Shown here piece after piece: positions 2,393-60,208 of a stretch of 64,000 bases of DNA; position 1 is the stretch's first letter, and every line of letters starts with the position of its first letter. The stretch lies in sequence record KM606994; one strand, written 5' to 3'. Position numbers and translations under genes: made by a program. Source of the stretch: Escherichia phage RB3. Under the pieces are notes generated by a model, which had not been told where the DNA came from, did no database searches, and saw only the letters and a list, made by a program, of their open reading frames with translations.

Positions 2393-2417
2393 TTCAATAT
2401 CCTCATTTGCCCAATTA

Positions 2418-2447
2418 ATTATACCACATCCTTGTGGTAAAGTAAAC
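2418..2447 (-). promoter_or_regulatory. early promoter (GTTTAC -35, 18-nt spacer, TGGTATAAT -10 on minus strand)
   Basis: Plus strand reads attata-N18-gtaaac; an identical 30-mer recurs at 47011-47040. Confidence 0.6.
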
Positions 2448-4264
2448 TACTGGCTCATCCATTCTTTACGAAGGTCAGCATTATCTCCCATGAGCATTTC
2501 AAAAAGCTCTTTCCAGTTCTCAGGAAGTTTAACAACATCATATACTGGATTTTGAATCATCTCACGATATTCAGATTTTTCCAAAGAGCCAAGTCCCTTA
2601 ATATAACGGATACTATGTTTAGGTAGAGCATCTTTAGCACTCTCATATTCAGCGACTGTATAAAACCATTCTTGTTTTTTACCGACCTGAGCGATGATTA
2701 CAGGAGTTTTGACAAAGCGAATTCGTCCTTGCTCAAACAATTCTGGCCAATTACTAAAAAATCCGAGCAGAGAAGGATAAATGCTTCCTAAACCATCATG
2801 GTCAGCATCAGTCATAATAGCAATATTATGATAATTCAAGTTTTCAGCTTTTTCACCTAGAACTAAACCCGTGATTGCGCAAATATCAAACAGTTCTTTG
2901 TTTTTAAGCATATCAGCATATGACATACCCCAACTGTTGAGAACTTTACCACGCAATGGATAACCACCATGAAGTTCTTTATCACGAACATCAATAAGAT
3001 ATCCGATAGCAGAATCACCCTCAGTCAAGAAAAGAGTAGTGTCAGCATCTTTACCACAAAGATTCGCTTTAATATGTTTATGAACCTTAGCTTTAGAAGC
3101 CTTTTTAGCTGCTTTAGTTTCTGCTGCTTTTTCTGCTGCCAATTTACGAGCTAATGCTGCTTCAATAATTGGCATCAAAATTGCTTCATTATTTAGAATA
3201 GCGCGTGAAATCTTTTTAGCATCAAGTTGAATATGACTACGGATTTCACCAAATGGAGAAGTCAAACGCTCTTTAGTTTGAGAATCAAATCGCATGTTTT
3301 TCATATCACGAACAAACATAACGATAGTCAAACATTCTTTGACACGTGCTTTAGTTACATCAATTTTGAACTTACGTTTGATTTGTGGAATAAGGTCTTC
3401 ACAAATATCATCCATAACACAGTCAATGTGATGGCCACCATTCTTAGTGTGAATGTTATTCACATAAGTTAATTGACGAAATCCATCCGGTGAACGACCA
3501 ACCGCAATAGAACAATTTTCTTGTTCTTGAACAATAGCATGTTCATCATACTGTCGTGCATATTTCTTAAAATTGCCCTGAACCTTTTTACCATTAAAGG
3601 TAAATTGAATATCAGGATAAACAACAGCAAGTGTCTGGAGACGATCCAGTGTAATGTCAAGATAAACTTGGGACAGCTCATTAGTTTCAAATGACATAAA
3701 ATCAGGAATGAAAGTAACACGAGTTCCTTTCCATTTTCCAGGAATATCTTCCCATGATTTATTTTCCATGCCATTTGAACAACGAACTACAATATTATTT
3801 TGACCATCACCAGTTTCACCGACAAACATCACAGAAAAAATGTTTGTCAAACTAGAACCAACACCATTCATACCACCGGTGACGCGTTCTTTATCATCAC
3901 CGAAGTTACCACCTGCTTTTGGAATAGTCCACGCAGCAACAGGACCAGGAATTTCTTCACCTGTAGGTGTTTTAACCATCGCCTGTGGAATACCGCGACC
4001 GTTATCTTCAACTGTTACCTGATTATTTTTAATAGTAACATTAATTTTATTTGCGAATTTAAACTTAGTACGAATACCTTCATCTACTGAGTTATCAATA
4101 ATTTCATCAATAAGCTTAACAAGACCAGGTACATACTGAACACTTTCCCATTTACCAAACAGAAAGCGCTCATGCATTTCATTAGCAGAAGAGCCAATAT
4201 ACATGCCGCTACGCTTTTTGATATGTTCAATATCGCTCAGAATTTTAATTTCATTCTTAATCAT
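2447..4264 (-). CDS. 39: DNA topoisomerase II large subunit, uninterrupted (gene 39 fused with the gene 60 part), 605 aa from first ATG
   Basis: GyrB-like ATPase and TOPRIM motifs (EDNGRGIP, GGMNGVG); ORF-track start is GTG, ATG is codon 2; no interruption, no inserted endonuclease gene. Confidence 0.9.
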   Translation of the reverse strand: MIKNEIKILSDIEHIKKRSGMYIGSSANEMHERFLFGKWESVQYVPGLVKLIDEIIDNSVDEGIRTKFKFANKINVTIKNNQVTVEDNGRGIPQAMVKTPTGEEIPGPVAAWTIPKAGGNFGDDKERVTGGMNGVGSSLTNIFSVMFVGETGDGQNNIVVRCSNGMENKSWEDIPGKWKGTRVTFIPDFMSFETNELSQVYLDITLDRLQTLAVVYPDIQFTFNGKKVQGNFKKYARQYDEHAIVQEQENCSIAVGRSPDGFRQLTYVNNIHTKNGGHHIDCVMDDICEDLIPQIKRKFKIDVTKARVKECLTIVMFVRDMKNMRFDSQTKERLTSPFGEIRSHIQLDAKKISRAILNNEAILMPIIEAALARKLAAEKAAETKAAKKASKAKVHKHIKANLCGKDADTTLFLTEGDSAIGYLIDVRDKELHGGYPLRGKVLNSWGMSYADMLKNKELFDICAITGLVLGEKAENLNYHNIAIMTDADHDGLGSIYPSLLGFFSNWPELFEQGRIRFVKTPVIIAQVGKKQEWFYTVAEYESAKDALPKHSIRYIKGLGSLEKSEYREMIQNPVYDVVKLPENWKELFEMLMGDNADLRKEWMSQ

Positions 4265-4316
4265 CACTTATCCTCGTTTGGTTTCGGGAATATTATACTC
4301 CGGTAATCATAAAGCT

Positions 4317-5799: not shown

Positions 5800-6069
5800 T
5801 TAATTGAACAGTGGAGCGATACGTTTCAGAAGAGTAGCAGCACCTTTGGCAAATTTTACATCATGAAAAACAGTTTCTTCTTCCGTTACAACACGAGCTT
5901 TAATGTTTTCACAATCCCAATTTTTGCGAACAATCTTCAAAAGCTGCAGTAAATCTTTACATTCAGCAATATCGATAACACATCCACGAGAATCTTCCAT
6001 TATCGCACGATAACCGTAAGCCATACCATAATCATTGAAAGATTGCTCGATGATAATTAAATTTTCCAT
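5800..6069 (-). CDS. hypothetical protein (89 aa from first ATG)
   Basis: Track ORF trimmed to ATG preceded by GGAG within the shared leader cassette. Confidence 0.45.
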   Translation of the reverse strand: MENLIIIEQSFNDYGMAYGYRAIMEDSRGCVIDIAECKDLLQLLKIVRKNWDCENIKARVVTEEETVFHDVKFAKGAATLLKRIAPLFN

Positions 6070-6121
6070 TTTATTCTCCAAGTTTTTCTGTATCAGTAGT
6101 TGATATTGATATAGTACCATA
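6070..6121 (-). promoter_or_regulatory. copy of shared promoter-leader cassette (divergent -35)
   Basis: Transcribed-strand sequence ATGGTACTATATCAATATCAACTACTGATACAG...GGAGAATAAA-ATG closely matches copies at 24392-24458 and 52094-52160. Confidence 0.4.
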
Positions 6122-6175
6122 ATCAACTACTGATGTATATAGTTTTATGAAAAAAATTTTAAACTTTATGCAAAT

Positions 6176-6595
6176 TTATGCTAAAGCTGCTTCGCACCAT
6201 TTTTTAATTTGGAATTCAGGAACTACCATGAACTGGCCTGCAAAAACAATATTGTAGAGCTTGACACCATCTTCTACCCAACGGTCCGAAATAAAACCAG
6301 CGACTTGATTCGTTGTCCATGGAGTTCCATCTGTTGCCGCCGCAATTGTGAATTTATGGTCTTTTACAACTAAAACTGAAGAACAAAGTTTCCATTTAAA
6401 TGCGCTTTCTTCTGGCTCAATGAACTGACTTGAGACATAACCAATGTTACCATCAGCGTCACGAACTTTAACCTCGTTACGACCAAAAACTGGATCACTT
6501 ACAGAAAGAACTTCAACCAGCTTTCCTGCAACTTTAGAACGAGAAGCAACGGATACATATACGTAATCACCAGTAGAGAGATTTACAATATTCAT
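6176..6595 (-). CDS. paralog-family protein (139 aa), member 1 of 3
   Basis: C-terminal motif WVEDGVKLYNIVFAGQF shared with 6605-7123 and 7151-7588. Confidence 0.5.
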   Translation of the reverse strand: MNIVNLSTGDYVYVSVASRSKVAGKLVEVLSVSDPVFGRNEVKVRDADGNIGYVSSQFIEPEESAFKWKLCSSVLVVKDHKFTIAAATDGTPWTTNQVAGFISDRWVEDGVKLYNIVFAGQFMVVPEFQIKKWCEAALA

Positions 6596-6604
6596 AATAA
6601 TTCC

Positions 6605-7123
6605 TTAAGCTTTACGAGGAGAAGCATAACGAGTGATTTCAGATTCTTCAACAACCCGGAAGTCACCTAAGAATACGATATTGTAGAGCTTTTCACCATC
6701 TTCAACCCATTGGTCTGTGATGAAGCCACACATCCTATCAGTTTTACTTGGACCAGCGAAATCATCAATATAATCGAATTCTTCATCAGTTACAAATTCA
6801 ACGCCTTTACACAACGCCCATTTAAATTGTGCATTAGACTCAGTGGATTCAACTTCTTCAACAGAAGCAAAATGAGAGCTAACACGAGTTTCCAGAAATT
6901 TAGGACTTACGTAAGCGTACTGAGTTTCAGTTTTTCCAGAACTAGGAATGATTCGAACTTTAACTTCTTTAACACGACCAGTACCATTAGTACGAAGTCC
7001 TACCACTTCAACTAGACGACCTGCAGCTTTAGAACGAGATGCAGACGATACACGCTTAATTTCACCGATAGTAATCATAATTTTTCTCTCTTTGTTGTTA
7101 AGATTTATACTCCGCAGGACCAT
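6605..7123 (-). CDS. paralog-family protein (172 aa), member 2 of 3
   Basis: Shares ASRSKxAGxLVEV N-terminal and WVEDGEKLYNIVFLGDF C-terminal motifs with 6176-6595. Confidence 0.5.
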   Translation of the reverse strand: MVLRSINLNNKERKIMITIGEIKRVSSASRSKAAGRLVEVVGLRTNGTGRVKEVKVRIIPSSGKTETQYAYVSPKFLETRVSSHFASVEEVESTESNAQFKWALCKGVEFVTDEEFDYIDDFAGPSKTDRMCGFITDQWVEDGEKLYNIVFLGDFRVVEESEITRYASPRKA

Positions 7124-7150
7124 TATACTCTGGTCCCAAGAGTTTGTAAA

Positions 7151-7588
7151 TTAGCTTACACGAACATTAATCACTGCGCTGCGAGGAACTACAGAGTACT
7201 CTCCAGCATGAACTACGTTCAGAAGTTCAACACCATCTTCAATCCACTGATCAGTCACCCATCCACCCACAGGATTCGCGAATGGACGACGAATATAAAC
7301 TGCCTTACACAGCAGATCAGTTGGATCTTCAGGTTTTTCAATTTCTGTCAATAGACTAAAATCTTTTTCATAAATAATAAGCGATGATACCATTCCATAA
7401 TAGTTTCTAATTTCAATATACATCATACCGATAAGAATTCCGCTATTAACACTAATAACAGTAAAAGGATATCCGCCAGTTAAACCAAGAAGTTCACAAA
7501 ACTTATTATGAGCTGTATTAGACAGTACCGAAAAATTCTTAATTTCATCAAATTTTTTCAATTGATAAACAGCATTATTTTTAATCAT
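7151..7588 (-). CDS. paralog-family protein (145 aa), member 3 of 3
   Basis: C-terminal WIEDGVELLNVVHAGEY motif related to the two preceding genes. Confidence 0.45.
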   Translation of the reverse strand: MIKNNAVYQLKKFDEIKNFSVLSNTAHNKFCELLGLTGGYPFTVISVNSGILIGMMYIEIRNYYGMVSSLIIYEKDFSLLTEIEKPEDPTDLLCKAVYIRRPFANPVGGWVTDQWIEDGVELLNVVHAGEYSVVPRSAVINVRVS

Positions 7589-8129: not shown

Positions 8130-8159
8130 ATAATACCATAACTAACCGAGGAAGTAAAC
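8130..8159 (-). promoter_or_regulatory. early promoter (GTTTAC, 18 nt, TATTAT)
   Basis: Plus strand ataata-N18-gtaaac upstream of ORF 7599-8102. Confidence 0.5.
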
Positions 8160-14392: not shown

Positions 14393-14864
14393 TTGTTTTA
14401 CCTAAAACAACAGTAGGAGCATCGTCAAATTTATGAATTTTTAGCAAATTTGGATGTAAACTATTCCATACAGAAGAAATAAAGTATGATAACGCATCTT
14501 CACTCGCAATTATAAATTTGTTTCCTTTGTCTATTTTCCAGTTATATACTGAATCGTACGAATAAAAAGATAAGGGTTTATCATTATATTGTTCTGCGCT
14601 AACATTAATGTATTCGGATTTAGTAAATGCTTCAATTGCTCTAAATGGAATATTTGGTACAGTTTCAATAATTCCGATCTTTTTAAGTTTTATTTCAGCA
14701 TCTTCTGGAACTGGCATTGAAACGAAATTTTCTACGAGATACATTGGGTCACAATAACCCTTATCAATCATTACTGCTACGGTAATTGGAACATCTTTAG
14801 CAAACGACATGCTATTACTGCTAATATACATTTCAAACAAAATTGCTTCCATAATTTTCCTCAA
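14367..14864 (-). CDS. hypothetical protein (165 aa)
   Basis: ORF track. Confidence 0.45.
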
Positions 14865-18458: not shown

Positions 18459-18488
18459 ACTATAACACAACTCTATCAGCTTGTAAAC
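18459..18488 (-). promoter_or_regulatory. early promoter (GTTTAC, 18 nt, TATAGT)
   Basis: Plus strand actata-N18-gtaaac. Confidence 0.5.
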
Positions 18489-18956: not shown

Positions 18957-18986
18957 ACTATACCATAGTCTTGTCAGCTTGTAAAC
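18957..18986 (-). promoter_or_regulatory. early promoter (GTTTAC, 18 nt, TATAGT) upstream of dmd
   Basis: Plus strand actata-N18-gtaaac. Confidence 0.5.
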
Positions 18987-24010: not shown

Positions 24011-24391
24011 TCACTTAGTCAAATTTTTTACACATGAATTATAAGAATTCACTACATACTCCATCGGAGCATTTTTACCTGTGCGCCATTGGTAATTATT
24101 AGCCCAATTTGCCCAAAGCACAGCGCAGTAGTTTTCAATTTTTTCTTCGCGTGTAATTACATCAGAATTACGATATGCTTGAGCAGATTCATCTGGACGA
24201 ATAGCTTCGTCAAAATTCGCCTGCATTTGTTCTACTGTTTGCTTTGGAGCTTCTTTATAACACTTGACATTAGGATTATAAAATTTGCTTGAACAGTTTA
24301 CAATTTTTCCTACATCAGACTGATTTACTACCGGTCCTTGAGCTACACAACCAGTAAGACCTAATGCAATAACCAAAATAGCGATTTTCAT
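24011..24391 (-). CDS. putative lipoprotein (126 aa from first ATG)
   Basis: Signal peptide MKIAILVIALGLTGC with lipobox; shared leader cassette upstream. Confidence 0.5.
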   Translation of the reverse strand: MKIAILVIALGLTGCVAQGPVVNQSDVGKIVNCSSKFYNPNVKCYKEAPKQTVEQMQANFDEAIRPDESAQAYRNSDVITREEKIENYCAVLWANWANNYQWRTGKNAPMEYVVNSYNSCVKNLTK

Positions 24392-24413
24392 TTCATTCTC
24401 CAAATCCGTATTA

Positions 24414-24458
24414 GTAGTTGATAGTTGTATAGTACCATGGAAGAACAGTCTTGTAAAC
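24414..24458 (-). promoter_or_regulatory. early promoter plus shared leader cassette
   Basis: gtagttgatagttgtatagtaccat then gtaaac at 24453-24458, followed by an A/T-rich UP-like tract. Confidence 0.5.
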
Positions 24459-24545
24459 AGTTTTGTGAAAATTTTTTAGGGAATTCTAAAGGTCCAGAAT
24501 CATCTGTTTTTCATAAGTATAGATTTATATTACTTGTATGAAAAA

Positions 24546-29244: not shown

Positions 29245-29276
29245 AATTTCCTCATTCAAGTTTTAGTGTAAATTAT

Positions 29277-29294
29277 AAAGGGCCGAAGCCCTTT
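29277..29294 (-). other. GC hairpin with UUCG loop between 45 and 44
   Basis: aaagggc-cgaa-gcccttt. Confidence 0.45.
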
Positions 29295-29295
29295 A

Positions 29296-29982
29296 TTAAA
29301 AATCGTGGGTAGAATCAGCTTCAAGAGCTACTACATAATTCGCATGTTCACCTTCAAATTTAGCAGCGCCTTGTTTACCTTTTGCCCAGAGCAGAAGTTT
29401 ATAATTTCCTGGTTGCATTTTCATATTTGCCATATTGATAATGAAATTAAATGTATTTTCACCATCATAATCACCAAGAGTCAAAGAATATTTAACACGG
29501 GTCAGAGCAGAATCTTCTACTTTATTAAAACCGTTAATTACGATTTTACCTTCTTTTACTGTGATAGCAATTGTATCAATTTGCAGACCACGAGATACAC
29601 GCAACAGTTGTTGAAGGTCTTCAGCTTTAATTTCAGTAACAACAGATGCTACCGGGAATGGAATTGGTTTATTAGGAGCAACTACTGTACTCGGATCGGC
29701 TGCTGGCCAAAAAATTGTTGAACGAGCATCAGCAATTTTAATATTTCCATCTTCTGACTGGGAAATTTCTGCATCATCATTAACTAGAGACAGAATACCG
29801 AGAAAACCGTTCAAATCGTAAATTGCTACATCAAAATCAATAACGTCAGAAATATTTGCTTCCGCGTAAGTTGTACCATTAACTGCGCGAGTCATAATAA
29901 ATTGACCGGATTTAAGCATAATGCCAGAGTTAATAGTAGCGAAATTTTTAAGCAGAGCAGTAGTATCTTTAGACAGTTTCAT
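29296..29982 (-). CDS. 45: sliding clamp gp45 (228 aa)
   Basis: Length and sequence as T4 gp45. Confidence 0.92.
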   Translation of the reverse strand: MKLSKDTTALLKNFATINSGIMLKSGQFIMTRAVNGTTYAEANISDVIDFDVAIYDLNGFLGILSLVNDDAEISQSEDGNIKIADARSTIFWPAADPSTVVAPNKPIPFPVASVVTEIKAEDLQQLLRVSRGLQIDTIAITVKEGKIVINGFNKVEDSALTRVKYSLTLGDYDGENTFNFIINMANMKMQPGNYKLLLWAKGKQGAAKFEGEHANYVVALEADSTHDF

Positions 29983-33963: not shown

Positions 33964-33986
33964 TATATCAAACTCCGTATAAAGCT

Positions 33987-34004
33987 AAAGGGCCGAAGCC
34001 CTTT
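33987..34004 (-). other. GC hairpin with UUCG loop overlapping alpha-gt stop
   Basis: aaagggc-cgaa-gcccttt. Confidence 0.45.
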
Positions 34005-35205
34005 ATTTTGTAATAATGTCAAACTGTTCTTTAAAGCAGAAGCTTGAATCTTGATGCTGATACAAAAATTCATATGCTTTTTCTCGCTCACGGTCATAAA
34101 GAGCTCGGTCAGATGACAGTTCTTTAATACGCTCGAATGTTGATTCCATGTCATTTTCATCAAACCAAATGATACCGCTATCATGCGAGGTCAAAGGAGT
34201 ATTATCAACACGGAATTTTAAATTATCACCCGTTGATTTCCAGAAAACAGGAATTGTACCGCAAGCACCTAATTCAAGATGAGTATATTCGAGTGAGCGT
34301 TGTAGATATTTTTTATCCAACTTACTCAACTGATAACCAAAACCGGATTTACTCATACGTTCAAGCATTTCGCTATTTACATAACGGTCAAGAATTTGCG
34401 TTGGCAAATTAGGAGCAATTTTAATTTGGTCTACTTGATGAAGACGATAATACTCGTATGGAATTCCTTTTTCTTTAATGGGAATGAACGCTGGAGAACG
34501 TTCCAGACCTTCCATAATAGTACTTAGTCCTGCAGGTTTAAGATGTTTTTCATGAAAATCAAACATCTGATAAAAACCTTTCCACGTAGTCGTACGACCA
34601 ATCCAACGGTTAATATTCATGTTAATTTCAGAAACATCTTTCCAGTAGGTTGACCGAACCTTCGCAATATCCATAGGAGGCTGAAAGTTATATACGGTCG
34701 GTGCTTCTTCAATATCATCAAACAGAGAAACTGTTTCAGGATACCATTCTTTCATCAGAACTTTATTAAAATCGCCATTATCAGAATGACTAAAAATAAC
34801 ATCAGCTCGACGAACAGTTTCTTCTAATCCCAAATTTCGACGCAAAGAAAGAGAAGAATGGTCATGTTGATAAACTACAACACGAACCGAAGGTTTAATG
34901 TTATCAATAATTTTTTTATAGTTATTAATTGTGTCTTCTTCGACTGAAGTAGCAGGAACTGAATTGATAATTAGAATATCACAATCATTTACCAGCTTAA
35001 GTGTTTTATCGTATTCTTTTGCCAATAAAACCGGAATTGAAAATGATTTATAATCATGCGCGCAGTTACGAGTAAATGATTTATCTTTAGCATAAACCAA
35101 AGTTACTTCATGACCATTTTTAATAAACCAATCACGCTGCTCAAGAGAAAATTTAGTTACACCGCAACCTTCAAGACCTCGAGCCATAAAAATACATACT
35201 TTCAT
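34003..35205 (-). CDS. a-gt: DNA alpha-glucosyltransferase (400 aa)
   Basis: Length and sequence as T4 alpha-gt (GT-B fold). Confidence 0.88.
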   Translation of the reverse strand: MKVCIFMARGLEGCGVTKFSLEQRDWFIKNGHEVTLVYAKDKSFTRNCAHDYKSFSIPVLLAKEYDKTLKLVNDCDILIINSVPATSVEEDTINNYKKIIDNIKPSVRVVVYQHDHSSLSLRRNLGLEETVRRADVIFSHSDNGDFNKVLMKEWYPETVSLFDDIEEAPTVYNFQPPMDIAKVRSTYWKDVSEINMNINRWIGRTTTWKGFYQMFDFHEKHLKPAGLSTIMEGLERSPAFIPIKEKGIPYEYYRLHQVDQIKIAPNLPTQILDRYVNSEMLERMSKSGFGYQLSKLDKKYLQRSLEYTHLELGACGTIPVFWKSTGDNLKFRVDNTPLTSHDSGIIWFDENDMESTFERIKELSSDRALYDREREKAYEFLYQHQDSSFCFKEQFDIITK

Positions 35206-45928: not shown

Positions 45929-45980
45929 GTTCTTCTCACTTGGTTAATGATTTATGCTCCGAGCCATCCTTGGCTTTAAA

Positions 45981-46982
45981 TTACTTAATTAACTGTAAAG
46001 CTTGTTCCAAACGATCAAGACGATTAACAGATTCTTCCCAAATCTTTTTAGCCTGCTCATATTCTTTCTGCGCTTTATTAGAAATTTCTAGAACTTCCTT
46101 ATAAGCTTTTTCTAGTGCAATAACTTCTGGACGAATTTCTATCGGTTCAGGTGAATCGTCAAGACATTCCATTAGTTCCTCAAGGGTAGTTTCTTCTTTA
46201 GGAGTATTCACAATTTCATCACATTTTTGTTGGTAAATTTCTTTATCAGTAGGTGAATAAGCACATTTCACTTCACGAAGGCTAATTACGAGTTTATATC
46301 CTTCCCAACCACCCATATTTTTGAAAGGATATGTATGAATACTTTTTACAGTTTCCATACAATCCAAAGCCGTCTCTAATTGACGAGTTATAGTGCTAGC
46401 AATTGAGAAAAATTTATTAATATTCTTTTGGTTAGCTTCTGGTGTAAAAAATTCGTAATTCACAAAAATAGCTACTTTATTTTTATCAAGCTCATATTCT
46501 TTTACGATAATCATATCAGAAGCCAAAGGATGAATTTGACGATAATCGCCATAACATAATTTAGAAGCTGATTTTAGAATTTGTCCTTTAAAAAGTCTGA
46601 AATTACTAATCCAACGACGAGTAAAAATATTCTTAGGGTCTTCTTTGATATTAAGATGATAAGAATTAACATCACCGAACCAATTGTATCCTATTACACC
46701 TTTAGTTCGTTTAATTTCTTTCCCAAAATTACCAAGAATATCCCGATTAACCAAATATGAAAGAAGACGAGACCCTTTAAAGATTATCTTAATATCATCT
46801 TTATCTACACGGCTAGAAATTTCACGAACTTCATGAATAAATTTACTGGAAGAAACAATACTTGCATCAATACTGCTGAGCCATTGATTGATAATAGAAA
46901 GAACAGCGTTCTGACTAGACATGGGTTTAACTTTATCATCAATAACGCTATTGAATGATTTGATATATTCGTTACGAGTCAT
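45981..46982 (-). CDS. uncharacterized protein with C-terminal coiled coil (333 aa from first ATG), array member 2
   Basis: Track ORF trimmed to ATG with GAGGAG RBS, downstream of promoter at 47011-47040. Confidence 0.5.
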   Translation of the reverse strand: MTRNEYIKSFNSVIDDKVKPMSSQNAVLSIINQWLSSIDASIVSSSKFIHEVREISSRVDKDDIKIIFKGSRLLSYLVNRDILGNFGKEIKRTKGVIGYNWFGDVNSYHLNIKEDPKNIFTRRWISNFRLFKGQILKSASKLCYGDYRQIHPLASDMIIVKEYELDKNKVAIFVNYEFFTPEANQKNINKFFSIASTITRQLETALDCMETVKSIHTYPFKNMGGWEGYKLVISLREVKCAYSPTDKEIYQQKCDEIVNTPKEETTLEELMECLDDSPEPIEIRPEVIALEKAYKEVLEISNKAQKEYEQAKKIWEESVNRLDRLEQALQLIK

Positions 46983-47010
46983 AATAATCTCCTCAGTAGA
47001 AAGTAAGAAC

Positions 47011-47040
47011 ATTATACCACATCCTTGTGGTAAAGTAAAC
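47011..47040 (-). promoter_or_regulatory. early promoter, exact duplicate of the 2418-2447 promoter
   Basis: Identical 30-mer attataccacatccttgtggtaaagtaaac. Confidence 0.6.
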
Positions 47041-48062
47041 TAGTTCAGTGCATTTAGTGCATTGCTCAGTTTAGAACGTTGCTTCGTGAGATTTTTGACT
47101 TTTTCTTGTGCTTTTTCTAGCATCTTTTCAGCTTCTAACACTTCATTAGTTGCTTTAACGAGTTCATCATCTACTGCCTTGATAGACTTCTCAATCGCAT
47201 CCGCGTGCCATTTTTCAACAGGTTTAAGACTCGGATTTTCAACAGGAAGAAAATTCACTTTATTGAATTTCCATGCATCTTTATTACCTGAGCTATACAT
47301 CCAAAATTTAGGATCGTTTGATAAGTAATTGGATAAATTTAAGTTATCTTGCACTTCCTGCTTTTTCTCTTGCGGGACTTCGTCCTTTCTCAAAAAATCG
47401 TATTTAAATGAAACGATCATATCAAGTTCATATGTTGTTGTATGTTCCCAATTTCGCTCAAAACGAGGTAAAATCTTAGATTGAACAGCAGCAACAACAT
47501 CCATATACTTAAATGCTTCTGTCAACTGCGATTTAAGGCATTCACAAATTGAAAGAGAATTTTTTGTATTAGGTTTAAAGCTAATTCGCGCAGTTCTATT
47601 ATTTTCTTTTAATGGTCTTACTTCCATCTGAAGAGTATAACCATCAAATTTCAGGTTCTTTAAGTTAATATCAGAGCCTTTTAATCGACTAGCAGTAGAC
47701 AAAATTTGCTTTAATTGTTTACGGAATAGAGCAATAAATCTCCATTCAATACGATAATGATTTGGATTGAAAAATCCAGATGATAAATCGACCTTACTTT
47801 GACCAACGCCTTGAACAATCAAAGGATTTTTATAATCAATAGTTTTACAGAAATCGGTGAGCTGTTCACGAGCAGTCATTTGTGTAATATACCCTGCTTT
47901 ACTAAAATTACGCACCCATTCACTGCTATTCGTATACTTAAAGTGATGAATAACACGATTAACTTTATCAGGGTCTAAATTATTTTCACACAAAAATGTC
48001 ATAACATCACGAGTATAGCTGGCATTACGAACCATATCTTCAATTTGAGAACGAGTTTTCAT
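47040..48062 (-). CDS. uncharacterized protein with C-terminal coiled coil (340 aa), array member 3
   Basis: ORF track; ATG start with AAGGAA RBS. Confidence 0.5.
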   Translation of the reverse strand: MKTRSQIEDMVRNASYTRDVMTFLCENNLDPDKVNRVIHHFKYTNSSEWVRNFSKAGYITQMTAREQLTDFCKTIDYKNPLIVQGVGQSKVDLSSGFFNPNHYRIEWRFIALFRKQLKQILSTASRLKGSDINLKNLKFDGYTLQMEVRPLKENNRTARISFKPNTKNSLSICECLKSQLTEAFKYMDVVAAVQSKILPRFERNWEHTTTYELDMIVSFKYDFLRKDEVPQEKKQEVQDNLNLSNYLSNDPKFWMYSSGNKDAWKFNKVNFLPVENPSLKPVEKWHADAIEKSIKAVDDELVKATNEVLEAEKMLEKAQEKVKNLTKQRSKLSNALNALN

Positions 48063-49373: not shown

Positions 49374-49428
49374 AATAATCTCAATTAAAAGGGCTTAGAA
49401 CCATTATACCATCCTTGGTATAAAGCGG

Positions 49429-49956
49429 TTATGCGAGTACCGTCTTTAACCGTTCTTCAAACTTCCGAAGAGTATTCTGGCGTTCAGCTCTTTGCTTTTT
49501 ATAAGTTTCAATACGCTCTGAAATGAGAGTGCATCGTTCATTTACTGATTCTTTCATAAAATCAGGAATTTCACGAGAAGCTTTAATCTCATCAAATTTA
49601 TCAATAACAGCTTGCTCTTCAGCAATTAAGTTATCATACATCAAAATATCTTTCTTGATGAACTCAATATCTTCTTGAGTTACACGAGATAACTTAGATG
49701 CTTTATCCTTTTTGTACTGTTCGTTAGTATCACGAGACCAATGTAATGTACGATTTTTATTCGTATTCTTGTAAATTTCTACGATACCAATCTCATCAAT
49801 AATAACGATCCAATTCCAACGGGATTTGTAAATTTGTCCTCCATCAACCGTGATTTCACCACCGATTGAGACATCATTAAAGAACTTGCTTTGAGCTTCA
49901 GATTTAAATTTACCATCGTTGTAATTTACCAGGTTGAAAATATCTTTAGCGTTCAT
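49429..49956 (-). CDS. hypothetical protein with C-terminal coiled coil (175 aa)
   Basis: ORF track; GGAGGA RBS; shared leader cassette upstream. Confidence 0.45.
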   Translation of the reverse strand: MNAKDIFNLVNYNDGKFKSEAQSKFFNDVSIGGEITVDGGQIYKSRWNWIVIIDEIGIVEIYKNTNKNRTLHWSRDTNEQYKKDKASKLSRVTQEDIEFIKKDILMYDNLIAEEQAVIDKFDEIKASREIPDFMKESVNERCTLISERIETYKKQRAERQNTLRKFEERLKTVLA

Positions 49957-49969
49957 TTTGTGTTCCTCC

Positions 49970-50014
49970 GTAGTTGATAGTTGTATAGTACCACAGAGGA
50001 ACAGTCTTGTAAAC
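49970..50014 (-). promoter_or_regulatory. early promoter plus shared leader cassette
   Basis: gtagttgatagttgtatagtacca then gtaaac at 50009-50014. Confidence 0.5.
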
Positions 50015-50016
50015 CA

Positions 50017-50331
50017 CTAAAAGAAACTTCTTTCACAATTTTTTCCACTGAACCATGCGCTCACTGCTTTCTTAGTCTCAGGAGCAGTGTTATCCATAAA
50101 CCATTCAAAGGCAGCCTTTTTATGATTCTGGAGGGCTTCTCGGGCTTTAATCTGCTCACGGTCTATTAACACTAACATATGAGCCTTTCTTGTCACCAGG
50201 GGCTTCTTATGATTTTTTGAATATTCCCAATCATTTGTCCATCGCATCGTTGTTGCGAACTGGAATACAGCTTCTTTAATCTTAGTTTCGTAAATTTCAC
50301 GAGCCTTTGAGTATAACATCATTACCTCCAT
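50017..50331 (-). CDS. hypothetical protein (104 aa)
   Basis: ORF track. Confidence 0.4.
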   Translation of the reverse strand: MEVMMLYSKAREIYETKIKEAVFQFATTMRWTNDWEYSKNHKKPLVTRKAHMLVLIDREQIKAREALQNHKKAAFEWFMDNTAPETKKAVSAWFSGKNCERSFF

Positions 50332-51128: not shown

Positions 51129-52093
51129 TTTAATAATACCGTTTCAGCAATTTCTTCCCAATGGTTTTTGTCGGTCATAATAAAGTCAGCAAGATAAAGT
51201 GCAGTACGCAGTGAAACATTGCGTAAACGATTAACATTGACTTTCATCCATGATAATGCTTTATAAGTTTCTTCATCAGAAAGACCGCGCTTTTGCATCA
51301 TGTCAGTTGAAAGAATAACATCTTCAACCCTGACCATAATTTCTTCATTAGTGTGAACACCCAAATCCAAATAAACTGAGCGGGACACTAATGCTTGTAA
51401 GTGTGGGGCAAGTTTAGTACCACGGTCTAATTCGCGGTCAATGTCAACGTTTGTGATAAAAACAATCGTTCCTTTAAATTCAAACTCACGCTCAATGCCT
51501 TTTTCTTCTAAGTAAGAAGATGCAGTGCTCCAGCAGACTTTACGGGTCTCTCCAGTGTCCAGAGCAGCTTTTAGAAGATTAAGAATGTCCATATCAGAGA
51601 AAACATCCACATCATCAATCAAAAGGACAGAATTCTCTTCACGATTATTCCAAAGTTGTTCATAAAGACCGATACCGGAGATTTTACCGTTAATGCTTTT
51701 ATATTCAATGTATCCAATATCATTTGCTTTATTTAAAGCTTTATCTAAAGAATACGTTTTACCAATGCCTGCTGCTCCTGAGATAATTAATGAACGAATG
51801 TTTCCGTTAATAATACCATTCGTCATCATTCCCATAACATTAAATCTTTTATTAATGCGGGTTTTCATATCTTCATATGATTCTTTAACTTCTTCAACTT
51901 TTACGCCATCATATGAAATGTCTGATTTGTAAACCCAAACACCGCGACGCTTACCGTCAATTTCAACAAAAACTTTACCATCTCCTTGTGCATCTACCGG
52001 AGCATTATCTGGGAACCATTCGCCTAAGAGCTCAAAAGTTCCAGAGATTTCTTTACCAAAGTAGATACCCTTATTGATAGTTACAGTTTTCAT
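51125..52093 (-). CDS. AAA+/P-loop ATPase (322 aa from first ATG)
   Basis: Walker A GAAGIGKT and Walker B LLIDDVD; track start is TTG, first ATG has GGAG RBS. Confidence 0.6.
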   Translation of the reverse strand: MKTVTINKGIYFGKEISGTFELLGEWFPDNAPVDAQGDGKVFVEIDGKRRGVWVYKSDISYDGVKVEEVKESYEDMKTRINKRFNVMGMMTNGIINGNIRSLIISGAAGIGKTYSLDKALNKANDIGYIEYKSINGKISGIGLYEQLWNNREENSVLLIDDVDVFSDMDILNLLKAALDTGETRKVCWSTASSYLEEKGIEREFEFKGTIVFITNVDIDRELDRGTKLAPHLQALVSRSVYLDLGVHTNEEIMVRVEDVILSTDMMQKRGLSDEETYKALSWMKVNVNRLRNVSLRTALYLADFIMTDKNHWEEIAETVLLK

Positions 52094-52115
52094 TTTATTC
52101 TCCAAATCTGTATCA

Positions 52116-52160
52116 GTAGTTGATAGTTGTATAGTACCATAAAGCTTTATGCTTGTAAAC
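52116..52160 (-). promoter_or_regulatory. early promoter plus shared leader cassette
   Basis: gtagttgatagttgtatagtaccat then gtaaac at 52155-52160 and an A/T-rich upstream tract. Confidence 0.5.
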
Positions 52161-52190
52161 CATTTTGTGAAAAATTTTTGAAATAAAAAA

Positions 52191-55169: not shown

Positions 55170-55209
55170 TGACAAGATTACTATACCATAACCTTGCCAA
55201 CTTGTAAAC
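55170..55209 (-). promoter_or_regulatory. early promoter (GTTTAC, 18 nt, TATAGT)
   Basis: Plus strand actata-N18-gtaaac. Confidence 0.5.
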
Positions 55210-55799: not shown

Positions 55800-55951
55800 G
55801 CCATGTGAGTTGCAACTTCATCACACATATTATAACGTTTCTTAAGAAGTTCTACAAGTTCTTCACTAGTAACTTCATCCATGTCGACGAAAAAATCACC
55901 ATTAATGATGACGTAGATATTTCCTTCTTGATTGAGTGCTTCAATTTTCAT
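55763..55951 (-). CDS. hypothetical protein (62 aa from first ATG)
   Basis: Track ORF trimmed to ATG with GAGGAG RBS inside the shared leader cassette. Confidence 0.4.
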
Positions 55952-55971
55952 GATGTTCTCCTCTTTATCCG

Positions 55972-56009
55972 ATAGTTGTATAGTACCACAGCTCAAACGG
56001 AAAGTAAAC
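55972..56009 (-). promoter_or_regulatory. early promoter plus shared leader cassette
   Basis: gatagttgtatagtaccac then gtaaac at 56004-56009. Confidence 0.5.
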
Positions 56010-56024
56010 CGGTAAAATGAAAAA

Positions 56025-59689: not shown

Positions 59690-60151
59690 TCATTGAGTTT
59701 TAATTACTGCTTTAGAAGCCTTTCCTGGTAAACGACGACTGTTAATAATTGCCATCCTGCATTGAAGCGACGGGTCTTTGAACTTCGCATTAGGTTTACA
59801 AACTGTAAATCCAAGCCAAAGATTTCCATCTGTGATTTCTAAACGTCCAGGACGATATTCAACCCCATCAATAAAATCCTCGTCAATGTCAGGACGCGGA
59901 GGCATACTCAGGGATTCATTAACTTCTAAAACATGGTCTTTTATTTTATGGAATAATTCAAAAACATATGTCTCATCAATCTCCCGTTGAATTGCGCGAT
60001 CAAGAAGATGTTGAGAATATTTTAGATGAAACGATGAGACTCCTGCTGCTTTTGATGCCTCACGAATCTCATTGTTAATTTGACGAAACTCCGACTCAAA
60101 GTGACGACGAAGCTTATTTCGACGGATAAAAACTTCTGTATTGATAGTCAT
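59690..60151 (-). CDS. regB: endoribonuclease RegB (153 aa)
   Basis: Length as T4 RegB; GAGGAG RBS; early promoter upstream. Confidence 0.75.
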   Translation of the reverse strand: MTINTEVFIRRNKLRRHFESEFRQINNEIREASKAAGVSSFHLKYSQHLLDRAIQREIDETYVFELFHKIKDHVLEVNESLSMPPRPDIDEDFIDGVEYRPGRLEITDGNLWLGFTVCKPNAKFKDPSLQCRMAIINSRRLPGKASKAVIKTQ

Positions 60152-60178: not shown

Positions 60179-60208
60179 ATTATACCACAGTCAAGAGGAA
60201 AAGTAAAC
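60179..60208 (-). promoter_or_regulatory. early promoter (GTTTAC, 18 nt, TGGTATAAT) upstream of regB
   Basis: Plus strand attata-N18-gtaaac. Confidence 0.6.

Follow-up and report, generated by a model that had tools for sequence, protein, structure and literature searches.

Two identical 32-bp elements that lie 44,593 bp apart in the DNA of Escherichia phage RB3 are old paralogues of one T4-type early promoter, and the hairpin nested in the spacer of that promoter, not the duplication, is the interesting residue of the finding. The DNA in question is a stretch of 64,000 nucleotides (sequence record KM606994), called the window below, and the two elements are referred to as copy A (upstream of rIIA.1) and copy B (upstream of nrdC.4). 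As an explanation of the whole we consider reasonably likely an account in which the two are old paralogous early promoters, their spacer hairpin is kept by selection, and the hairpin has a proposed role as a site for the host regulator CsrA; each part is given its own weight below.

Two paralogous copies of an early promoter

The 30-mer ATTATACCACATCCTTGTGGTAAAGTAAAC occurs exactly twice in the window, at 2418–2447 and 47011–47040 on the plus strand, and re-inspection found no difference between these copies, which a preliminary description of this DNA had reported as identical. No third copy is present in the window when up to three mismatches are allowed, and no match was found in 100 dinucleotide-preserving shuffles of the window, so the repeat is not a product of chance, as that description had also held. 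Extension of both copies outward, a check it had proposed, gave a total repeat of 32 bp (2418–2449 and 47011–47042) that ends abruptly on both sides and is flanked by unrelated sequences; in both copies the two extra identical bases finish the upstream gene’s TAG stop codon. The repeats are in direct orientation. Every gene around them lies on the minus strand, which is the coding and meaningful strand here, and on it the element reads as a TAG stop codon joined to GTTTAC-N18-TATAAT (also written TAG-TTTAC-TTTACCACAAGGATGTGG-TATAAT).

Read in this way, both copies are almost certainly T4-type sigma-70 early promoters, judged from their sequence. GTTTAC lies at −36 to −31, TGG at −15 to −13 and TATAAT at −12 to −7 in both, and a promoter scan returned TTTACT-17-TATAAT with TG before the −10 hexamer at both sites (10/12 matches to TTGACA-N17-TATAAT). 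GTTTAC at −36 to −31 is the T4 early consensus (PMC1524935), and the consensus of T4 early promoters extends beyond the hexamers (PMC2988021); the −35, the 17-bp spacer, the TGn extended −10 and the TATAAT of both copies all fit this class, so the repeat is the early promoter that the preliminary description took it to be. With the T4 early promoters of the “UP/−35/TGn/−10” class (the Liebig and Ruger / Wilkens and Ruger consensus, summarised in PMC2988021 and PMC1524935) the copies share GTTTAC, TGn, TATAAT and a place directly 5′ of early genes on the early-transcribed strand. Unlike those promoters, they are without an A/T-rich upstream region, and their spacer is a conserved hairpin common to both copies and to other genera. 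The A+T fraction of the −60 to −37 region is 0.58 in copy A and 0.62 in copy B, neither copy has an A-run at −45 to −40, and none of the 17 early promoters of the window is lower in A+T than copy A (promoter 55980 ties with it at 0.58). The A/T-rich UP-like region is missing because both copies begin inside the stop codon of the preceding gene, and the −60 to −37 region is the 3′ end of that upstream coding sequence.

From the position of the −10 hexamer, transcripts should start near 2411 (copy A) and 47004 (copy B), and in both cases a Shine-Dalgarno sequence and an ATG follow 25–28 nucleotides past the promoter. The unmodified host sigma-70 RNA polymerase would read GTTTAC(T), the 17-bp spacer, TGn and TATAAT, and the promoters would give early expression of rIIA.1(-rIIA) and of nrdC.4. 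The preliminary description had placed the copies before rIIA.1 and before a “second coiled-coil array gene”, and the latter is nrdC.4 (gene names here are taken from the RB51, T4T and T2 records). The promoter pair itself is already known, as a fixed and annotated feature of T4-type phages: public records of phages fPS-65, fPS-2 and Lutter label the exact 30-mer “promoter”, that of Lutter labels copy B as a 30-nucleotide promoter, and T4 itself has both promoters (copy A exact, copy B 31/32). A literature search that left most subscription journals outside its reach gave nothing relevant on the repeat sequence itself, and no T4 transcription-start data set was found in it.

The preliminary description had allowed that the 30-mer might be the universal consensus found before most early genes, and this is ruled out by comparison with the other early promoters of the window. 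Among the 17 promoters (136 pairs) the consensus is GTTTACtt...........TgTGGTAt.AT, which covers 19 of the 30 positions of the 30-mer; the GTTTAC, TGG and TATAAT of both copies agree with it. The 30-mer is not that consensus because the central 11 nucleotides otherwise vary (on average 3.5/11 are identical over the 136 pairs, versus 11/11 for copies A and B) and because the next best pair of any window promoters reaches 27/30 (24429 and 49985; 18957 and 55180 reach 26/30). The promoters next most similar to the 30-mer itself match it at 24/30.

Both copies stand at the same two sites throughout the genus Tequatrovirus (504 records), copy B at the nrdC.5/nrdC.4 junction. Of 481 Tequatrovirus records, 479 (T4, T2 and T6 included) have copy A’s 32-mer in exact form, and about 50 records have two exact copies. 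The Tequatrovirus phages RB5, RB6, RB7, RB9 and RB10 are 100% identical to the window over the 2.5 kb tested, and positions in the window differ by no more than one base from those in the first 64 kb of their genomes. In T4 (T4T), T2 and most others copy B has TTTGCC for TTTACC (31/32), and in wV7 and EC121 it has TTCGCC (30/32). One A/G polymorphism, at −27, thus accounts for the perfect identity of the copies in the window; A and G alternate at this position in other genera too, and gene conversion therefore need not be invoked. Within Tequatrovirus 2 of 32 sites vary in the block, versus 22 of 100 in the adjacent nrdC.5 coding sequence.

The spacer hairpin across phage genera

The hairpin in the spacer is absent from the preliminary description and is the feature that needs explanation. 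It is 18 nucleotides long (7+4+7), runs from −28 to −11, and so takes up spacer plus the first two bases of the −10 hexamer; its predicted fold (−8.2 kcal/mol) has either an AGGA tetraloop or an AAGGAU hexaloop, and it begins 8 nucleotides past the upstream stop codon in both copies. A BLAST search at word size 11 with the 32-mer found the core also well outside Tequatrovirus. Jiaodavirus has three non-orthologous sites with the hairpin, one of them directly after the DNA polymerase gene 43; in Winklervirus X20 it lies after gene 41 and before sp; Karamvirus fGh-Ecl04 has it with the loop TGGA; and at the alt/alt.-3 junction it is present in Dhakavirus JS10 and AnYang, in Marfavirus (loop CGGA) and in Tegunavirus TG1. 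Rosemountvirus yarpen, a 52-kb phage unrelated to T4, has a hairpin locus with 29/31 identity. The hairpin is thus found at non-orthologous promoters in at least seven T4-like genera (Tequatrovirus included) and in the unrelated Rosemountvirus, and at the orthologous alt/alt.-3 junction it is kept in Dhakavirus, Marfavirus and Tegunavirus while the flanks diverge.

A host origin of the 32-mer was rejected, since there is no copy of it on any chromosome among 5,426 E. coli genomes. The only matches in these genomes (29/31) are NZ_CP067310.1 34834–34864 and NZ_JBVNBN010000003.1 14419–14449, in two 53-kb replicons that are filed as plasmids and that, from their size and sequence, may be Rosemountvirus-like phage genomes. 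Anywhere in the window Rfam had no match at the gathering threshold, and around copy B it gave nothing meaningful.

A promoter’s least constrained part is normally its spacer; here the spacer is frozen across these phage genera. Within the hairpin family it is identical from −27 to −11 while the surrounding promoter elements change: the −10 hexamer is TATAAT, TACTAT, TACCAT, TATTAT or TATAGT, the triplet at −30 to −28 is TTT, AAC, ATC, AAT or ATT, and TG1 has a MotA box in place of the −35. Promoter function by itself would not predict higher conservation in a spacer than in the −10 hexamer. The remaining early promoters of Jiaodavirus match any promoter of the window at 18–25/30 only, while the hairpin family reaches 27–28/30 with the spacer fully identical. 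In an alignment of 19 family members 94% of the stem cells are paired. The pair −26:−13 is CG in 16, AU in 1, UA in 1 and UG in 1, and the pair −27:−12 is AU in 14 and GU in 5; compensatory changes at −26:−13 occur in TG1 (AACACA...TGTGTT) and at locus L104 (ATCACA...TGTGAT). In the members derived from BLAST the invariant bases that the promoter consensus leaves unexplained are C at −25, ACA at −24 to −22 and GGA at −20 to −18. From these comparisons the hairpin is probably under purifying selection of its own, the spacer being frozen across genera because it doubles as a hairpin, and the G·U pairs, together with a sense-strand bias (below), favour action in RNA over action in DNA.

Whether the hairpin is a general trait of TGTG-type promoters was answered in the negative by a control scan of IMG/VR with TTTAC-N13-TGTGnTATAAT, in which 0 of 141 new promoters had CACA at −25 to −22, and no excess of arm pairing in register was present among these 141. 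The scan also re-listed two CACA loci that had already been fetched, and the true frequency is therefore about 1–2%.

A candidate CsrA site and competing readings

What the hairpin matches is the consensus bound by CsrA, a regulator of the host for which no action on T4 RNA is known; the literature search described above gave no paper that connects CsrA with T4 RNA. The consensus RUACARGGAUGU, obtained for CsrA by the ligand-selection method SELEX, has ACA and GGA 100% conserved and GU in all but one ligand, and in the ligands GGA lies in a hairpin loop with AC paired to GU; the RsmE loop is ANGGAN (PMC7652899). The element CC-ACA-A-GGA-U-GU (CCACAAGGAUGU) agrees with this consensus at 10/12 positions and has every invariant base (ACA, GGA and GU), and the experimentally validated CsrA sites of ColE7 cel have 9/12 and 7/12 consensus matches (PMC2896534). 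The invariant bases of the hairpin, ACA-n-GGA-U-GU, are CsrA consensus bases, its predicted fold places GGA in the loop, and variation within the family is confined to positions that CsrA tolerates (the N of the loop, the outer stem pairs, A/G at −27, and the U after GGA in yarpen). The motif CA.GGA.G on the sense strand outside open reading frames occurs four times in the window, in all four cases as a CAAGGATG hairpin just past a stop codon, where about 0.9 would be expected. They include two related hairpins elsewhere in the window (Table 1). The one at 49404–49423 has as its 3′ arm the TGGTATAAT of a promoter cGCTTTA-N12-TATAAT, and both are conserved in other Tequatrovirus loci. On such grounds it is possible, and we suggest it tentatively, that the spacer hairpin is a CsrA-type site that acts in RNA.

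If so, only read-through RNA from gene 39 or nrdC.5 would carry the hairpin, since the local promoter would start transcription 3′ of it. The GGA of the hairpin is 29 nucleotides (copy A) or 32 nucleotides (copy B) from the GGA of the downstream Shine-Dalgarno sequence, within the range of 10–63 nucleotides over which CsrA dual-site bridging works (PMC7652899). A CsrA dimer tethered at the hairpin could therefore bridge to the Shine-Dalgarno GGA, and the bridged CsrA would silence translation of the downstream gene on read-through RNA, whereas promoter-initiated RNA, which is without the hairpin, would escape silencing. A trans-acting factor would be needed in such a scheme, since the hairpin of copies A and B makes no contact with the Shine-Dalgarno sequence: their spacers do not pair with it, unlike those of six neighbouring promoters.

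At these six (8130–8159, 18459–18488, 18957–18986, 49985–50014, 55180–55209 and 60179–60208, minus strand) the spacer is complementary to the promoter’s own leader and Shine-Dalgarno sequence, and with about 25 nucleotides of downstream sequence included the predicted hairpins are 10–15 bp long with z-scores of −3.8 to −5.8. The last of them is the early promoter of regB, whose spacer pairs with the regB GGAG Shine-Dalgarno region. At these promoters read-through RNA would have its Shine-Dalgarno sequence sequestered and promoter-initiated RNA would not. This is the cis arrangement of T4 genes e, soc, 49 and I-TevI, in which the promoter lies inside a hairpin and only promoter-proximal transcripts are translated (PMC3014915). 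Copies A and B resemble those in that an element with its 5′ part upstream of the local start would tell read-through from local RNA; the hairpins of e, soc, 49 and I-TevI sequester the Shine-Dalgarno sequence directly, whereas that of copies A and B does not.

Known CsrA dual-site systems (the glgC leader hairpin plus Shine-Dalgarno sequence, and the ColE7 cel T1 stem-loop plus Shine-Dalgarno sequence; PMC7652899, PMC2896534) likewise have a second GGA downstream, and cel, a colicin lysis gene, is a precedent for a CsrA site on an extrachromosomal element. Unlike the glgC and cel sites, the candidate site here is on a virulent phage, lies 5′ of the local start, and has a 3′ half that doubles as an extended −10.

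The broader idea, which we likewise put forward with reserve, is that T4-like phages of enterobacteria may have built a high-affinity CsrA hairpin into the spacers of some early, and some middle, promoters. Were this true, host CsrA would decide which class of transcript is translated, or phage RNAs would titrate CsrA, and the need to serve two ends at once (as extended −10 in DNA and as CsrA hairpin in RNA) would account for a 26-bp block that is frozen in at least seven genera and reappears in an unrelated Salmonella phage. Confirmation would extend the well-studied post-transcriptional control of T4 by a host RNA-binding protein, set a trans-acting counterpart beside the classic T4 layout with a promoter inside a hairpin, and show that one 30-bp element can bear two overlapping codes.

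Several points weigh against a selected hairpin that binds CsrA. The covariation rests on few sequences and few independent changes. Some of the aligned sequences were collected through search patterns in which CACA, AAGGA and TGTG are set, so the invariance of these bases is partly ascertainment, a bias from which only the members found by BLAST are free. The promoter consensus would fix the 3′ arm TGTGGTA in any case, and therefore only about seven bases (C, ACA and GGA) are independent evidence. In an unbiased scan the complementarity at −26:−13 was not significantly higher at promoter-like matches (12/18) than at other matches (26/58), a weak contrast that is due in part to one homologous coding family that inflates the other matches. 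For the CsrA step itself, a motif match is the basis of the case, and CC stands here at the first two consensus positions (RU). According to SELEX (PMC7652899) CsrA binding may suffer when stems are very stable, and the stem here is 6–7 bp; the mechanism also relies on putative read-through transcripts across both junctions. The forced-pattern scans gave many chance or coding matches, and the overall enrichment of −26:−13 complementarity in them (38 of 76 against 20 expected) is no more than suggestive. The homologous and apparently coding family just mentioned comes from unrelated viral contigs of IMG/VR (L047, L057, L058, L067, L069, L070, L072, L077, L078, L085, L088 and others); it has the form GC-CACAAGGATGTG-GTA or GT-CACAAGGATGTG-ATA, with a flanking pair that is either C:G or T:A, and the complementarity statistics of the forced-pattern scan were inflated by it.

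The simplest alternative is plain promoter paralogy, in which the spacer has been kept for promoter strength, or has had too little time to change, and the palindrome and its CsrA match are coincidental. The consensus of T4 early promoters does reach beyond the hexamers (PMC2988021), the 24429/49985 and 18957/55180 pairs described above show that the window has other paralogous promoters, and the 3′ arm of the palindrome is promoter consensus. We nevertheless consider this reading unlikely, since the spacers of other early promoters vary between genera (the 18–25/30 matches in Jiaodavirus), the −27 to −11 block stays identical while the −10, the −30 to −28 triplet and, in TG1, the −35 change, and neither the compensatory pair changes nor the absence of CACA from all 141 control promoters is what it would lead one to expect.

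It is rather more doubtful that the element is a cassette of the promoter-early stem-loop (PeSL) type, with the stem-loop serving as a terminator or 3′-end stabiliser joined to an early promoter and also as a recombination point for modular shuffling. T4-like phages do have composite terminator/promoter elements, among them a T4/PST pair with the promoter TTTACW-N17-TAYWAT (PMC4122927, PMC2839356), and PeSLs (Arbiol et al. 2010, PMC2839356; Comeau et al. 2014, PMC4122927) likewise combine a promoter, a stem-loop and a 3′ Shine-Dalgarno sequence and start codon; the strong sigma-70-like promoter with Shine-Dalgarno sequence and start at its 3′ end is present here. The hairpin starts close behind the upstream stop codon in both copies, and the element, like PeSLs, recurs at many intergenic sites. 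One copy also adjoins a mosaic boundary: copy A lies in a conserved region, and copy B borders a site of nrdC.4 allele replacement in EC121 (L010) and 235Ecol030PP (L011), which diverge about 10 nucleotides into nrdC.4, right after the promoter and 5′ untranslated region. The promoter and leader beside this break are conserved, and the allele there is divergent and shorter (927 versus 1002 nucleotides; window 46800–46982). It is the only recombination signal near the element, it is homologous, and it fits promoter-proximal module exchange (PMC2839356, PMC4122927). The stem-loop of a PeSL, however, is a terminator that lies upstream of the −35 with an AT-rich region, whereas the hairpin here is nested between −35 and −10 (−28 to −11), has an invariant GGA loop, and has no AT-rich region upstream (0.58 and 0.62, as above). 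Nor does it look like an intrinsic terminator: the stem is short (7 bp, 3 G-C pairs), the tail is UAUAAU and not a U-tract, and a loose terminator scan found nothing at copy A and a marginal match at copy B. A simple terminator would not need the invariant ACA/GGA loop context, and copies A and B lie 44.6 kb apart around essential genes and do not flank an ORFan as PeSLs do.

The preliminary description had proposed that one copy was probably acquired by recombination, which suggests a recent event, and could serve as a substrate for deletion or inversion; on this view the pair is a live substrate for ectopic recombination. Exact identity over 32 bp between unrelated flanks speaks for it, and T4-like phages do recombine at short repeats, with PeSL exchanges and mini-circles documented (PMC2839356). 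The proposal is nonetheless largely refuted and we hold it improbable, because both copies are fixed at their sites genus-wide and are already 31/32 identical in T4 and T2. Inversion is impossible because the repeats are direct, and a deletion between them would not be viable because the interval holds essential replication genes (it contains genes 39, 61, 41, 43, 62, 44, 45, 42, 56, 55, 46 and 47). A 44.6-kb duplication would exceed the headful capacity. The related genomes were searched for rearrangement breakpoints at the copies, as had been suggested, and the recombinant A × B junctions (both chimeric queries) were spanned by 0 of 504 related records. As a driver of rearrangement the duplicated promoter is thus ordinary; both promoters are fixed in T4 and its relatives and are not recombining together.

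Very doubtful, too, is a DNA operator, in which a dimeric phage or host repressor on the 18-bp palindrome would shut off a subset of promoters in a layout like that of lambda OR1 over PR. The perfect 7+4+7 palindrome is placed to block RNA polymerase, and its half-site TACCAC presumably resembles the lambda operator half-sites. The mechanism of T4 early-promoter shut-off is, moreover, incompletely understood (PMC2988021, PMC3014915). A symmetric operator would not usually have an invariant centre that is non-palindromic, here (n)GGA, however, and A/G at −27 opposite a fixed T suits G·U pairing in RNA, not symmetry in DNA. The related AGGA-loop hairpins have different arms (AGCCA and TTATACCA) and the same loop, there is no candidate regulator common to T4-like phages and Rosemountvirus, and the sequence is absent from the chromosomes of the E. 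coli genomes searched. To our knowledge none of the host operator consensuses (DnaA box, CRP, LexA and others) fits, a comparison made without a formal test.

RegB, the phage endoribonuclease, recognises GGA and cleaves GGAG/U in the intergenic parts of early RNA, and it cleaves without S1 a small RNA whose GGA is in a loop and is followed by a paired base (PMC3014915, PMC1702504). In the hairpin GGA is likewise unpaired in the loop with the fourth base paired, as in that S1-independent substrate, and homologues of regB occur in 1,136 phage records, Jiaodavirus (KP185), Karamvirus (CC31) and Tegunavirus (fHe-Yen9-01) included. That the hairpin is a RegB site at which read-through RNA is cut between the two genes is, attractive as the structure may be, extremely improbable, since in the primer-extension survey of Durand et al. 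(30/30 intergenic T4 GGAU motifs tested) only 55.2 and motB.2 were cut, copies A and B not being among them, the Rosemountvirus hairpin has GGAA, which RegB cuts very poorly (PMC1702504), and the 3′ context GGAUGUGGUAU does not fit GGAGRAYARAA. A divergent promoter on the plus strand (TGTGGTAAAGT) was discarded by reasoning, as it is not kept in copy B of T4 or in other genera.

Coordinates and neighbouring elements

Table 1. Positions in the window of the two promoter copies, their parts and related features.
Feature	Position	Strand	Remarks
Copy A of the 32-bp repeat, TAGTTTACTTTACCACAAGGATGTGGTATAAT	2418..2449	−	gene 39 stop codon and rIIA.1 early promoter
Copy B of the 32-bp repeat	47011..47042	−	nrdC.5 stop codon and nrdC.4 early promoter
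Hairpin/palindrome TACCACA-AGGA-TGTGGTA, copy A	2422..2439	−	in spacer and first −10 bases; CsrA-consensus core ACAAGGAUGU
Same hairpin, copy B	47015..47032	−	TACCACA-AGGA-TGTGGTA
−35 region GTTTAC, copy A	2442..2447	−	−36 to −31; sigma-70 hexamer TTTACT = 2441–2446
Extended −10 TGG-TATAAT, copy A	2418..2426	−	
−35 region GTTTAC, copy B	47035..47040	−	
Extended −10 TGG-TATAAT, copy B	47011..47019	−	
Shine-Dalgarno GAGGA of rIIA.1	2400..2404	−	GAGGA-N7-ATG; ATG 2390–2392
Shine-Dalgarno GAGGAG of nrdC.4	46989..46994	−	GAGGAG-N6-ATG; ATG 46980–46982, gene 45981–46982
Gene 39 (topoisomerase II large subunit, unsplit 39+60 form)	2447..4267	−	TAG stop overlaps first G of GTTTAC
nrdC.5	47040..48062	−	TAG stop overlaps first G of GTTTAC
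Related intergenic hairpin AGCCA-AGGA-TGGCT	45962..45975	−	directly after nrdC.4 stop; CAAGGATG core; without promoter
Related hairpin TTATACCA-AGGA-TGGTATAA	49404..49423	−	CAAGGATG core; 3′ arm = extended −10 of MotA-box-like promoter
regB (endoribonuclease)	59690..60151	−	Pfam REGB_T4, E = 4e-67

Three further kinds of repeat were seen in the window. Early promoter plus leader families longer than 32 bp lie at 24385–24477, 49941–50033, 52087–52179, 55947–56017 and 6067–6159; they share GTTTACAAG...TGGTACTATACAACTATCAACTAC, and 24385–24438 and 52087–52140 are 94% identical over 54 nucleotides. A G+C-rich terminator-like hairpin, TAAAGGGCCGAAGCCCTTTATT, occurs as an exact 22-mer pair at 29276–29297 and 33986–34007, with variants at 4316, 27329 and 37627. 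The region 6207–7269 has internal direct repeats of 71–79% identity about 430–540 bp apart, which are tandem MotB-like paralogues according to the RB51 annotation.

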